A program made the position numbers and the translations under genes. The notes beneath the pieces were generated by a model. The model was not told the DNA's origin and searched no databases. It saw only the letters and a list, made by a program, of their open reading frames with translations. Below, piece by piece: positions 1,174 to 21,064 of a stretch of 64,000 nucleotides of DNA. The stretch's first letter is position 1. Each line of letters starts with the position of its first letter. This DNA is from Escherichia coli (lineage in GTDB: Bacteria; Pseudomonadota; Gammaproteobacteria; Enterobacterales; Enterobacteriaceae), in assembly GCF_003334385.1 (NCBI RefSeq), contig NZ_QOWN01000003.1. The stretch is one strand, 5' to 3'.

Positions 1174-2199
1174 TCAGGAATGTAGCGCTGGATGCGTGAC
1201 AAAAGGTGTTTTCTGTTTGTGTTTTTTCTCCTGATACATCGCAATATCGGCAGCATGCAGGGCACTGTCTGCATCGGTTGTTTCAGGATCGACTTCTACT
1301 ATGCCAAGACTGGCACCGGGATAATACAAATCAACATCACCTAAGTGATATTCTCCACGTATTTGCTGCTGAATGCGTTCTCGCAGCGACGAAATATCCG
1401 CATTCTCGTTGTTTAGTGAAACAACTAAAAACTCATCACTGCCGAGACGACCAATAACTTCGCCATTTTGCTGGAGCGTATTAAGGCGCTCGCCAACCTG
1501 AATGAGAAACAGATCGCCACTATTATGACCAAAACGATCATTGATTAATTTGAAGTTATCCAGATCGATAAACGCGATCATTATCTTATGGTTAAGATGC
1601 CGGGCGAGGGAAAACAGTGTCGTCAGATTTTCAAAAATCGCCCGCCGATTCGGTAGCCCGGTTAACGAGTCGGTATACGATTGCGCAATCAGCGCAGCAT
1701 TGGCTTCGCGCAGCTGTTCAACCAGTGCCTCTTTTTGAATATATTGTGCAATCAGTCCGGCGAATAACTGTAAAACCTGTTCCGCGCGTTCACTCCACTG
1801 GCGCTTCTCACTGCTGGCGGCGCAAAGCGTGCCATAGAATGATCCATCCGGTAAGTGAATTGGCGTGCTCAGAAATGTGGTGATGCCAAGATTGCGTGCC
1901 GCAATACAGTCACCCCAACGGTCGGGGACTTCATCGCTGAAAAAGCAGTTTTCATCAATGGCGCGTTTGCATAACGAGTAATCCCACGAGACGGTAAAAT
2001 TCTCCGGGATGTACATTTTCTGGCTGTTACGGGCAAACATAATATGCTGCAGGCGCGCTTCGACATCCACTTTGGTCAGGTAGGTTGATTCCATATCAGT
2101 GACCATTTCCAGCATCTCCAGAAGCTGTCGGACCAGACTTTCCAGTGACTGTTCTTTGGCAAGGGATTGCGAGACGCGGGCGATAATCTGATCTGACAC
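1174..2199 (-). CDS. yeaP: GAF-GGDEF diguanylate cyclase (DgcP/YeaP)
   Basis: ORF with GGDEF-domain signature (...GHNSGDLFLIQVGERL...GRLGSDEF...); longest ORF extends to 2328, but the GTG at 2199 gives the 341-aa product (MSDQIIARVSQ...) expected for YeaP. Confidence 0.8.
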   Translation of the reverse strand: MSDQIIARVSQSLAKEQSLESLVRQLLEMLEMVTDMESTYLTKVDVEARLQHIMFARNSQKMYIPENFTVSWDYSLCKRAIDENCFFSDEVPDRWGDCIAARNLGITTFLSTPIHLPDGSFYGTLCAASSEKRQWSERAEQVLQLFAGLIAQYIQKEALVEQLREANAALIAQSYTDSLTGLPNRRAIFENLTTLFSLARHLNHKIMIAFIDLDNFKLINDRFGHNSGDLFLIQVGERLNTLQQNGEVIGRLGSDEFLVVSLNNENADISSLRERIQQQIRGEYHLGDVDLYYPGASLGIVEVDPETTDADSALHAADIAMYQEKKHKQKTPFVTHPALHS

Positions 2200-6382: not shown

Positions 6383-7873
6383 TCATGAACGGCTGTTTTT
6401 GTTCTGCTTATTGACATATAAACGCTCATCGGAAGCTTTATACGCATCATGTAACGTATCGTTTTCTTTCATCGCGTAAATACCGGAAGAGAAGCCGATC
6501 TCTTTCTGCGGCGCGATATGTTGCAGACGTTTTTCGATACGTTCAGGCAGTTGTGCTGCAATTTGCGGCGTCGAATCGACAAGAATGATGCAGAATTCAT
6601 CGCCACCGAGTCGGATGGCATAATCACTTTTACGAATCGACTGTTTAATCGCCTGAGCTAATAACGTAATCGCTAAATCCCCCTCCTGATGACCGAGGGT
6701 GTCATTTATTTGCTTTAACTTGTCCATGTCAATAGCAATAAACATCACCGAAGAACCGGATTGCACCAGTTTCTGCAACCGCTGCTCCAGTTCAGGGGTT
6801 AAAATTTTGCGATTATACAGTCCAGTCATCGCATCACTAATATTTTCTCGCGACACATTTTGGTATAAACGGAAGTGCATCCGCACCATATTCAGCAAAA
6901 TTAACGCCGTCAAAATCCAGAACAGAACGCTTTTCCACGAAGACGTGATAAAGTAAAGAATATCAATGGATAACGAGACACGAATGCCGCCCGGTAAGTC
7001 ATGGACGTAACTGACATACTGGAACAGATTATCTTCGCTCTGGTTGATGATAATGTCGCGCCCCGAATCGGTATCGGTTAGCGTGACATTGAGAAAACGC
7101 CAGAGGAGAGGGCGGTCATGAGTATAAAAGATATTCCGCAGATTGTTTTTGTTAATATCCAGCAGCACAATCCCTTTTAGCTGCCCTGCGACATATACCG
7201 GCGTCAGCAAACTCATCACGTTCTGTTTAGTACGCTGATCCTGGTAAATGCTCGACAATACGGTACGCCCGGTAAATACCTTTTCAATATCTTTGCGATC
7301 GATGCCAATACTTCCTGACTGCAGGAAGGACCAGTTATTCATCGCAAAGTATTCAACATTAACCGGCTCATAAAAATAGACATAGCGGTCATTGAGATCG
7401 AGATAATAGTGAAATTTCTCTTCGGCCATCCCAAGACCTGAACCGTAATCATCCTGGTGGCGGTTACCTTCCACTGCCTGATCAAAAGCGGGTAATAGTG
7501 CTGCAGCTTCCACAATTGTGTCGCAGTCAGTGGATGCGGTTTGTAGTGTGCCGCGTAAGCCCGGGTATTTATGGGCAGTCAGGTTTAAGCCATGGGTGTT
7601 ATTGGCAGACTCAAAAGCCTCGCAGATGGCGCGCCGCTGTTCTGGCGACACTTCCGACTGCTCAGCAGCGAGAGCGCGCATCACATGCGCGGCAATACTC
7701 TGATTCTGATACTTATCATAAAGAAAGGAGGAGTCTGCTTTCTGCACGATATAGCGCAGATAGGCACTCATTGCTCTGTCGCTGGCGACAAGTTCAAAAA
7801 TAAGGAAGGAAGATGTCAGCACAATGACACTTGCGGCGATAAAATGCCGGAGCATTCTATGGTGCAATTTCAT
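6383..7873 (-). CDS. yeaJ: membrane-anchored GGDEF diguanylate cyclase DgcJ/YeaJ
   Basis: C-terminal GGDEF domain with canonical RLGGDEF; longest ORF starts at 8053, but the ATG at 7873 (MKLHHRMLRHFIAASVIVL...) gives the expected 496-aa product with an N-terminal TM helix. Confidence 0.85.
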   Translation of the reverse strand: MKLHHRMLRHFIAASVIVLTSSFLIFELVASDRAMSAYLRYIVQKADSSFLYDKYQNQSIAAHVMRALAAEQSEVSPEQRRAICEAFESANNTHGLNLTAHKYPGLRGTLQTASTDCDTIVEAAALLPAFDQAVEGNRHQDDYGSGLGMAEEKFHYYLDLNDRYVYFYEPVNVEYFAMNNWSFLQSGSIGIDRKDIEKVFTGRTVLSSIYQDQRTKQNVMSLLTPVYVAGQLKGIVLLDINKNNLRNIFYTHDRPLLWRFLNVTLTDTDSGRDIIINQSEDNLFQYVSYVHDLPGGIRVSLSIDILYFITSSWKSVLFWILTALILLNMVRMHFRLYQNVSRENISDAMTGLYNRKILTPELEQRLQKLVQSGSSVMFIAIDMDKLKQINDTLGHQEGDLAITLLAQAIKQSIRKSDYAIRLGGDEFCIILVDSTPQIAAQLPERIEKRLQHIAPQKEIGFSSGIYAMKENDTLHDAYKASDERLYVNKQNKNSRS

Positions 7874-8053: not shown

Positions 8054-9529
8054 TTAAATATGATGAATAATCACTTTGTTGCCCCCCTCGCTTTTCGCTT
8101 CGCGTAAGGCTTTATCTGCTTCCGTCATGACAAGCGAGATATTACGCGTGTCACCCGTTGAAAAAACCGTGCCAATACTGATGGTCATTTGTTCAGGAAC
8201 ATCATATCTGTTACTAAAGCCGGTCAGGAGTTCGACATTTTTACGCATACGTTCCGCAATGATTTTTGCCTGGGCACTATTGAGTTCGGTAAATAGCAAG
8301 CCAAACACCTCACCCTCCAGTCGCGCTAAAATATCATCGGGGCGGATGCTTTGCTGGATAATATCGACAATTGAAACCAGCACTTTATCACCCACACGAT
8401 GTCCCCATTGGGCATTGATGCGTTTGAACTGATTAATATCAACCAGCATGACACAGAAGTCCTTAACAACAGGTCGCGACAATAATGACTCTACGCTGTT
8501 GAAAAAGTAGCGCCGATTATAAATATTGGTCAGCACATCATGAACTGCCAGTTTGCTGGAGAGTTGCAGCTCCTGAAAAATGTTATAAATCAGAAAAGAC
8601 ACAACAAACAGTTTACTGGAAACTTCAATCCCGCGACTGATATACCAGATAGTATAATTATACTCATCCAGAGTCAGTAGAAGTAAGTTGCAGCATAGCG
8701 ATGCCAGACATAATAATGCTATTAACGGCCATAGTTCGCTGGCTAATCGTGTGCGCATGATAATAAAGAACAGTAAAAATGCCCACAGACAAACCAATAT
8801 TTTTGTATAGTTGATTCCCCAGGTCGCAGTATGGTTGTCCGGACAGTAATCGACGACATACAAAGAATAGTCAGCGTTATAACTGCTCAGATTGTGTGCC
8901 AGAAGGGGAAAAACTAAAAAAGGGATCAGCGCCAGCAACAGGATTCCCGTTTTTTTCTTATTGTTGTCAAGGATGTTGTCTTTTCCATAACAAAAGAGCG
9001 CCAGCGAGGTTAAACAAATAAAACTGAGTTGGCGGAAAATATAGAAAATAGAAACATCATTCGACTTTGTCTGGATCAGTGTACTGCCGTTAATTGGTTT
9101 ATGGATAATTACAATGGTTTCAACTAAATAGATAAGGCCACTTAAAAATGCAAGGCTTAAAATGAGTGTTGGTAAAATTTGTTTGTTAGTGAAATATTTC
9201 ATTAACATGAAAAGAAAAATGACGGCGTTAAGGAAAAACAAAGCCACAACAACCATCAGGTAATTCATCTGTGGGATGAGTTTTACATTTGTGTTTTCGT
9301 TATATAAGGTAGTAATGCAAAATAAAATTAACGTCAGCAATAAACTGAAAATAAAAAAGCTTTGAGCTTTTAATTTTTGTGTACCCATAGAAACCATAAA
9401 AAGGAGAGCAATGTGAGTGCTGGATTTTATTGATGGCAGAGATATATAGTTTTGACCAGGATCAATTTTCGTTAACGATAAAAAATATTTAAAGAATAAC
9501 CCCATGGAAATACGTGTTGACTGAATCAT
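8054..9529 (-). CDS. yeaI: membrane GGDEF-domain protein CdgI/YeaI with degenerate active-site motif
   Basis: 491-aa ORF, multi-TM N-terminus, C-terminal GGDEF domain whose motif reads EGEVF (catalytically degenerate). Confidence 0.85.
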   Translation of the reverse strand: MIQSTRISMGLFFKYFLSLTKIDPGQNYISLPSIKSSTHIALLFMVSMGTQKLKAQSFFIFSLLLTLILFCITTLYNENTNVKLIPQMNYLMVVVALFFLNAVIFLFMLMKYFTNKQILPTLILSLAFLSGLIYLVETIVIIHKPINGSTLIQTKSNDVSIFYIFRQLSFICLTSLALFCYGKDNILDNNKKKTGILLLALIPFLVFPLLAHNLSSYNADYSLYVVDYCPDNHTATWGINYTKILVCLWAFLLFFIIMRTRLASELWPLIALLCLASLCCNLLLLTLDEYNYTIWYISRGIEVSSKLFVVSFLIYNIFQELQLSSKLAVHDVLTNIYNRRYFFNSVESLLSRPVVKDFCVMLVDINQFKRINAQWGHRVGDKVLVSIVDIIQQSIRPDDILARLEGEVFGLLFTELNSAQAKIIAERMRKNVELLTGFSNRYDVPEQMTISIGTVFSTGDTRNISLVMTEADKALREAKSEGGNKVIIHHI

Positions 9530-19684: not shown

Positions 19685-21064
19685 ATGGAACAGATAACAA
19701 AACCGCATTGTGGTGCACGGCTGGATCGCTTACCGGATTGCCGCTGGCATTCATCAATGTTTGCCATCGTCGCGTTTGGCTTGCTTGTCTGCTGGAGTAA
19801 TGCCGTTGGTGGCTTGATCCTCGCGCAGCTGAAAGCGTTGGGCTGGACAGATAATTCCACCACAGCCACATTCTCAGCAATCACGACCGCCGGAATGTTT
19901 CTCGGTGCGCTGGTGGGCGGCATCATTGGCGACAAAACCGGTCGCAGAAATGCGTTCATCCTCTATGAGGCCATTCATATTGCCTCGATGGTTGTCGGTG
20001 CTTTCTCACCGAATATGGATTTCCTTATTGCCTGCCGTTTTGTGATGGGAGTTGGGCTGGGAGCTTTACTGGTTACGCTGTTTGCTGGTTTCACCGAATA
20101 TATGCCCGGTAGAAATCGTGGAACGTGGTCAAGTCGGGTTTCCTTTATTGGCAACTGGTCATATCCGCTCTGTTCATTGATAGCGATGGGACTCACGCCG
20201 CTGATTAGTGCAGAGTGGAACTGGCGGGTACAACTGCTTATCCCTGCAATATTGTCGCTTATCGCTACGGCGCTGGCCTGGCGCTACTTTCCTGAATCCC
20301 CGCGCTGGCTGGAATCGCGCGGACGGTATCAGGAAGCCGAGAAAGTCATGCGGAGTATAGAAGAAGGCGTCATACGCCAGACGGGTAAACCTTTGCCGCC
20401 TGTGGTTATTGCTGATGACGGTAAAGCGCCACAAGCGGTGCCGTATTCAGCCTTACTGACAGGAGTATTACTGAAACGCGTGATATTAGGCTCTTGTGTG
20501 CTGATTGCCATGAACGTTGTGCAGTACACACTAATTAACTGGTTGCCAACAATATTCATGACCCTGGGGATTAATTTAAAAGACTCGATTGTTTTAAATA
20601 CCATGAGTATGTTTGGCGCGCCATTTGGTATTTTTATTGCCATGCTGGTGATGGATAAAATTCCGCGTAAAACAATGGGTGTGGGGCTATTAATCCTGAT
20701 TGCGGTGCTCGGATATATCTATTCACTGCAAACCAGTATGTTGCTCATAACGTTGATTGGTTTCTTCCTGATTACTTTCGTCTATATGTACGTTTGCTAT
20801 GCCTCGGCAGTGTATGTCCCTGAAATCTGGCCGACAGAGGCCAAACTCCGTGGCTCCGGTCTGGCGAATGCGGTAGGGCGAATCAGTGGTATTGCCGCAC
20901 CTTATGCCGTTGCAGTGCTGCTCAGTAGTTATGGCGTTACGGGAGTCTTTATTCTTCTGGGGGCGGTTTCAATTATTGTCGCAATTGCTATCGCCACCAT
21001 TGGAATCGAAACCAAAGGTGTCTCCGTTGAAAGTTTAAGTATTGATGCAGTAGCCAATAAATAA
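19685..21064 (+). CDS. ydjK: MFS transporter YdjK
   Basis: 459-aa polytopic ORF; paralogous to the downstream ydjE. Confidence 0.9.
   Translation: MEQITKPHCGARLDRLPDCRWHSSMFAIVAFGLLVCWSNAVGGLILAQLKALGWTDNSTTATFSAITTAGMFLGALVGGIIGDKTGRRNAFILYEAIHIASMVVGAFSPNMDFLIACRFVMGVGLGALLVTLFAGFTEYMPGRNRGTWSSRVSFIGNWSYPLCSLIAMGLTPLISAEWNWRVQLLIPAILSLIATALAWRYFPESPRWLESRGRYQEAEKVMRSIEEGVIRQTGKPLPPVVIADDGKAPQAVPYSALLTGVLLKRVILGSCVLIAMNVVQYTLINWLPTIFMTLGINLKDSIVLNTMSMFGAPFGIFIAMLVMDKIPRKTMGVGLLILIAVLGYIYSLQTSMLLITLIGFFLITFVYMYVCYASAVYVPEIWPTEAKLRGSGLANAVGRISGIAAPYAVAVLLSSYGVTGVFILLGAVSIIVAIAIATIGIETKGVSVESLSIDAVANK

Follow-up and report, generated by a model that had tools for sequence, protein, structure and literature searches.

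A rare natural missense allele of Escherichia coli dgcP replaces the second glycine of the GGDEF active-site motif with serine

In the Escherichia coli DNA analysed here (one stretch of 64,000 nucleotides, hereafter the window), the diguanylate cyclase gene dgcP, also called yeaP, encodes GSDEF where the active-site (A-site) motif GGDEF would be expected. An earlier note on this DNA had pointed out the motif and left two options, that GSDEF is normal for this enzyme or that it reflects a G-to-A change specific to the strain, with a misread glycine codon as a further alternative. The questions raised by the locus are which of these holds, and whether a cyclase with this motif would still make c-di-GMP. 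The coordinates of the gene, its domains and its variant codons are specified in Table 1.

Table 1. Position of dgcP, its domains and its variant codons in the window
Feature	Position	Strand	Details	Basis
dgcP (yeaP) coding sequence	1174..2199	minus	341 aa, GTG start, GAF-GGDEF diguanylate cyclase	ORF list and translation
A-site motif	1429..1443	minus	GSDEF in place of GGDEF, residues 253-257 of dgcP	direct reading and alignment to solved cyclases
Codon 254	1438..1440	minus	AGT (Ser), SNP at 1440 (plus strand T; K-12 C), G254S	
Codon 335	1195..1197	minus	ACG (Thr), SNP at 1197, A335T, in the C-terminal tail outside the Pfam GGDEF domain	
GGDEF domain	1210..1677	minus	residues 175-330	Pfam PF00990, E = 4.4e-40
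GAF sensor domain	1735..2151	minus	residues 17-155	Pfam PF13185 (GAF_2) and PF01590 (GAF)

Reverse-complement reading of the motif gave GGC AGT GAT GAG TTT (G-S-D-E-F, within ...NGEVIGRLGSDEFLVVSL...), which bears out the earlier note. Its remarks on two neighbouring genes were also accurate: dgcJ/yeaJ (6383-7873, minus strand), described as carrying a canonical RLGGDEF, reads AIRLGGDEF, and cdgI/yeaI (8054-9529, minus strand), described as degenerate with EGEVF, reads ARLEGEVF. The best PDB matches of the window DgcP were diguanylate cyclases, and in HMMER alignments Ser254 was placed opposite the second glycine of GGDEF in TpbB (7a7e) and in the Thermotoga protein 4urs. Judged by the intact GG[D/E]EF A-site that marks competent cyclases, the window protein falls short at this residue. 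The rest of its GGDEF domain is the K-12 sequence, so that the substrate- and metal-binding residues are intact; a published listing gives K-12 YeaP the complete KNDHDR signature (PMC3484386).

The RxxD I-site motif, which serves c-di-GMP binding and is expected five residues before the A-site, is absent: the window DgcP has Q-N-G-E (residues 244-247) where TpbB has R-E-S-D, and QNGE also occupies this position in K-12 DgcP. Pfam searches of the protein returned the GAF and GGDEF domains only, with no EAL or other output partner domain. Lacking both an RxxD I-site and an EAL partner, the window DgcP is unlike the known receptor-type degenerate GGDEF proteins. Moreover, degeneracy is fixed in such receptors (PopA, PelD and EAL-adjacent domains), whereas GSDEF in DgcP is carried by about 0.1% of complete E. 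coli genomes.

The window gene was compared with dgcP of K-12 MG1655, where it lies in a collinear position between yoaF and yoaK-yoaJ-yeaQ. The two genes are identical at 1024/1026 nucleotides, and the proteins share their GAF and GGDEF domains and 339/341 residues. The window protein falls in the same 90% cluster as the K-12 protein, annotated 'diguanylate cyclase DgcP'. Both nucleotide differences, G760A (G254S) and G1003A (A335T), are G-to-A changes on the coding strand and both are nonsynonymous; K-12 DgcP (WP_001310896.1) has G254 and A335 where the window protein has S254 and T335. Codon 254 of MG1655 is GGT (Gly), and YeaP of CFT073 has been tabulated as ...RGGDEF, the YeaP of both CFT073 and K-12 being GGDEF and treated as a verified cyclase (PMC3484386). 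With glycine in both, GSDEF is not the normal state of DgcP. The possibility raised in the earlier note that reference YeaP proteins also carry GSDEF was thus not borne out, and of its two options the G-to-A change stood while the normal feature did not, since K-12, CFT073, most E. coli and other genera have GGDEF.

DgcP orthologues of other Enterobacteriaceae also retain the second glycine. GGDEF was present in 123 of the 127 motif-bearing DgcP-like cluster representatives, which have 63-98% identity and span Escherichia, Citrobacter, Enterobacter, Leclercia, Lelliottia, Kosakonia and others. GDDEF as the norm of E. fergusonii and GRDEF as the norm of E. cloacae were considered and rejected, all other listed motif-spanning cluster members being GGDEF; the two representatives with these motifs are rare alleles.

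For a wider view of the position, phmmer was run against 1.84 billion representatives, and 263 GGDEF-domain stretches from 144 of the top proteins were aligned. The second motif residue was glycine in 246 domains, serine in 11, alanine in 4 and another residue in 2, serine being the commonest replacement (11/17), in a sample that is biased because such a search favours two-domain proteins by score and the query itself has GSDEF. All eight GSDEF cases were the second GGDEF domain of a protein that also has a motif of the canonical GG[DE]E type (exactly GG[DE]EF in six, GGDEL in one and gapped in one); an EAL domain adjoined the GSDEF domain in 7/8, and none (0/8) was a stand-alone sensor-cyclase. 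These eight proteins (P0188, P0197, P0207, P0219, P0233, P0279, P0302 and P0312) are large and multidomain and come from diverse bacteria. The pattern suggests that domains with serine at the second position form a conserved degenerate subtype; regulatory GGDEF domains without catalytic activity are classically found in just this arrangement, as a second domain before an EAL domain.

The tandem-GGDEF proteins (mostly GGDEF-GSDEF-EAL) and PFLU5960 of Pseudomonas fluorescens have the same five-residue motif as the window DgcP. In them GSDEF is a fixed feature and, in all but PFLU5960, belongs to a second domain in a protein that also carries a canonical-type motif; in the window GSDEF is polymorphic and belongs to a sensor cyclase with a single GGDEF domain.

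The frequency of the serine codon in E. coli was determined with a 30-base query centred on codon 254, every 28-base seed word of which spans the variant. AGT was found in five of 5,426 complete genomes and GGT, in the same 28-base context, in 4,987; the remaining ~430 vary elsewhere in this context, and codon 254 is unscored in them. The five carriers are the chicken isolate VTB97420v and the human isolates 2012EL-2448, 2015C-3121, 2018-166 and STEC2018-553. A literature search on the serotype or lineage of the four clinical isolates yielded no useful information. The two that were fetched (VTB97420v and 2012EL-2448) encode WP_001590211.1, a protein with H63 and S254. In this divergent GSDEF haplotype, the 2012EL-2448-type locus (L008, L013 and L014), an IS605-family TnpB/InsQ gene adjoins yeaQ, where K-12 has yoaG-yeaR.

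The H63+S254 protein was present in 2,608 collection blocks and its GGDEF counterpart in 74,352. By exact-sequence look-up, the window protein (S254+T335) occurs on 8 contigs, including those encoding NCBI entries OWD72911.1 and HAH1511592.1. WP_001590211.1 has the same G254S, through the same G760A transition, as the window allele; it differs in its H63, A335 background and its at least three nucleotide haplotypes, the window allele with T335, on 8 contigs, being much rarer. Altogether G760A was found on four haplotypes: the window type (K-12-like with G1003A), a K-12-like type with T187C, one with 17 differences from K-12 and one with 20. The substitution has thus arisen, or been transferred, several times. 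On sequence grounds, G254S can be taken as established to be a real, derived and rare allele (~0.1% of complete genomes) that arose repeatedly. A G-to-A change was one of the two options of the earlier note; its restriction to one strain does not hold, given the four haplotypes and the fixation of the change in a well-sampled clade.

Other A-site variants also segregate in dgcP: G254D (GDDEF, 4+2 contigs), D255N (GGNEF, 67 blocks), E256K (GGDKF, 14 contigs) and GGDEL (142 contigs). Proteins P0005, P0168 and P0169 are among those with GGDEL, GGNEF, GGDKF or GDDEF. Active-site loss in dgcP is thus a recurring polymorphism. The gene is interrupted by IS1 (IS1A) in the chicken isolate EF7-18-51 (NZ_CP063487.1) and has been reported as disrupted by IS5 in LS5218 (PMC5699524), two disruptions which show that loss of dgcP is tolerated.

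At codon 254 the only variants found were serine and aspartate, both derived by transitions; G254R, G254C, G254A and G254V were not found in the collection look-up. The DgcP 90% cluster holds 5,737 distinct sequences. With only transition-derived residues at the codon and so many sequences in the cluster, the recurrence of G254S is as mutation supply in a deeply sampled species would give, and alone it is no sign of selection.

The strain background of the window allele was reconstructed from close relatives. Comparison of the whole 64 kb with MG1655 gave 24 SNPs, in which transitions and transversions are mixed: 15 nonsynonymous (one of them nonsense), 4 synonymous and 5 intergenic. Besides those in dgcP, the nonsynonymous changes include nimT G112S, yeaG R520H, yeaD P214S, ydjK Q294L, ansA L202F, ydjA R149L, ynjE L66P, astD T164S, astB P116L, and celF P46A and I212V. 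AR_0149 was compared as well over the first 26.5 kb, and there every difference except one was private to the window lineage. G254S is thus accompanied in this strain by further private nonsynonymous changes that remain unpurged, and this nonsynonymous skew looks like recent mutation on which selection would not yet have acted.

A special targeting of dgcP was considered and rejected: two SNPs in 1 kb are within expectation (0.39 per kb; P(≥2) ~0.06 per gene over ~60 genes), and celF also has two. Chemical mutagenesis or a laboratory-strain origin, which the two G-to-A changes in dgcP might recall, was likewise set aside: the 24 differences mix transitions and transversions, and a laboratory origin also conflicts with an IS186 insertion in yeaR and some SNPs that the strain shares with the natural isolates AR_0149 and SCU-104.

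An IS186/IS421 element has inserted in yeaR, and its terminal 76 bases make up positions 1-76 of the window; the yeaR remnant extends from 77 to ~310. The same insertion is present in the complete genomes AR_0149 and SCU-104 and there is none in MG1655. The ydjE gene (25935-27293, plus strand), encoding an MFS transporter, carries a G-to-T change at 26613 that gives a premature stop (E227*). This stop is shared with one complete genome, SCU-104, whose ydjE is annotated as a pseudogene with an internal stop. In SCU-104, ydjK is annotated as frameshifted by one base missing relative to window position 20809, whereas the window ydjK has Q294L instead. SCU-104 shares three further non-K-12 positions with the window.

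Despite the shared IS186::yeaR, AR_0149 and SCU-104 encode the K-12 DgcP protein; relative to K-12, AR_0149 and SCU-104, G254S is private to the window lineage. An intermediate protein with GGDEF and T335 (P0002) occurs on 13 contigs, and S254 without T335 on the K-12 background was absent from the assembly collection. From the presence of this intermediate, the absence of the opposite one and the K-12-type DgcP of the relatives, the order of changes was IS186::yeaR (with the ydjE stop, as SCU-104 shares it), then A335T, then G254S.

In GGDEF domains the motif folds into a tight beta-hairpin where the substrate binds. Systematic mutagenesis of WspR has reportedly found the motif to be almost invariant. 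In Vibrio fischeri, the G410A mutant of CasA, altered at the second glycine, phenocopies the deletion (PMC8576532), and GADEF or GAEEF serves as the routine dead-enzyme control across the cyclases of this species (PMC10402110). In Shigella flexneri, DgcP in which GG was changed to AA gave no c-di-GMP signal, the wild-type enzyme being a slow, weak producer (PMC11327459). The engineered GADEF and GAEEF proteins resemble the window DgcP in carrying a small residue at the same motif position; they differ in that the residue is alanine, introduced by design into other proteins, while the window has a natural serine. The searched literature gave no enzymatic data on glycine-to-serine at the second position in DgcP or any other cyclase; its second-position variants were the engineered GADEF and GAEEF only, and GSDEF came up in one relevant paper, that on PFLU5960. 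The paper on the WspR structure makes no comment on the second glycine, and DgcP is not named in the Römling-lab papers on variants. Since replacement of the second glycine by alanine kills activity elsewhere, Ser254, which is alanine plus a hydroxyl, most likely abolishes or greatly reduces catalysis by DgcP.

We therefore favour, with reasonable though not full confidence, the reading that GSDEF is a real, derived, lineage-specific missense allele of dgcP, tolerated by the cell, with cyclase activity lost or strongly lowered. The course of events is read as follows: in a small phylogroup-A clone near K-12 and the ST10 complex, after the earlier A335T, a GGT to AGT transition put serine in place of the second glycine in the GG[DE]EF catalytic hairpin. 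Synthesis of c-di-GMP by DgcP would be abolished or strongly reduced, leaving a folded GAF-GGDEF protein that gives nothing, or much less, to the growth-phase c-di-GMP pool. With about a dozen cyclases to draw on, E. coli probably tolerates the loss, which would be nearly neutral or mildly deleterious. Against inactivation, serine is a small residue, and the abundance of H63+S254 and the four haplotypes would also fit a harmless or a favoured variant.

That the GSDEF enzyme is still active or partly active, a near-silent polymorphism of the kind of AGDEF or SGDEF, is unlikely. Motif tolerance is context-dependent, and AGDEF, SGDEF, HGDEF and MGDEF variants keep activity, although the documented tolerance concerns the first position only (PMC3974145); AGDEF of VCA0965 and SGDEF of ECA3270 are, like GSDEF in the window DgcP, single-residue departures from GG[DE]EF, but at the first, more tolerant glycine, whereas DgcP is changed at the second. 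The GSDEF site of PFLU5960 has been called 'imperfect'; a mutation nearby nevertheless produces a wrinkly phenotype of the c-di-GMP type, and the implication of this protein in c-di-GMP-dependent wrinkly spreaders hints at some activity (PMC4395868). The prominence of serine among the residues that replace the second glycine in diverse GGDEF domains agrees with some activity, as does the far greater abundance of H63+S254 compared with the certainly dead D255N and E256K alleles; clonal expansion of one lineage can, however, account for that abundance. Weighing against activity are the loss of CasA function on glycine-to-alanine change at the same position and the use of this change as a dead control in many cyclases, the retention of glycine by every sampled orthologue species, and the confinement of the fixed natural GSDEF domains found to second, mostly EAL-adjacent positions, never in a stand-alone sensor-cyclase.

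A stronger form of this idea holds that GSDEF is a functional second-position variant, either active or altered in regulation or partner binding, that has been recurrently favoured in E. coli. We regard it as distinctly improbable. Were it true, DgcP(G254S) would provide the first demonstration that a natural stand-alone cyclase can do without the second glycine, and the favoured variant would include a widely sampled clade with clinical Shiga-toxin-producing isolates.

There is, in our estimate, only a slim chance that loss or alteration of DgcP has been positively selected in some lineages, for example through lower c-di-GMP during growth in a host. The four haplotypes that carry G760A, the further A-site variants and the IS insertions known in dgcP, and the heavy sampling of one GSDEF clade (which includes four human clinical isolates, at least one labelled STEC) would fit such selection. 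However, recurrent transitions are expected anywhere, given hundreds of thousands of genomes and the size of the DgcP cluster; the restriction of the variants at codon 254 to serine and aspartate points to mutation supply and not to selection for serine, and the window strain has a general excess of private nonsynonymous changes.

Finally, there is a close to negligible chance that faulty sequencing or assembly produced the serine codon: the window comes from a draft contig, of which it forms the first 64 kb, but two Logan assemblies from independent runs (SRR3823653 and SRR10357324) and several NCBI assemblies carry the same two nucleotide changes, and G254S is also present in the five complete genomes, so that the AGT codon is very unlikely to be a misread glycine codon, contrary to the alternative offered in the earlier note. 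Over its first 5,199 bases the window is identical to the start of this contig (QOWN01000003.1, GCA_003334385.1), which evidently broke at the IS186 copy; the window opens with an IS186 end inside yeaR because it starts where the contig starts.

The GSDEF variant, most likely a tolerated allele with lost or strongly reduced activity, is a missense change that occurs rarely in nature in an already known gene; it belongs to a known class of active-site variants and is no novel enzyme type. It has little general weight, since DgcP is characterised, degenerate GGDEF motifs are well known and the allele is rare. The recurrent G254S nevertheless offers a natural test of serine in place of the second glycine of GG[DE]EF, and in inventories of c-di-GMP enzymes drawn from genomes, DgcP of the window strain or of the H63+S254 clade is not safely counted as active. 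DgcP of K-12 is among the more strongly expressed growth-phase cyclases (PMC5635695), and deletion of dgcP in CFT073 lowers biofilm on glycerol (PMC3484386); from these two observations, a modest loss of c-di-GMP input is the expected phenotype. If the variant is inactive, the lineages that carry it would be without one strongly expressed growth-phase cyclase, and their balance between biofilm and motility might shift slightly.
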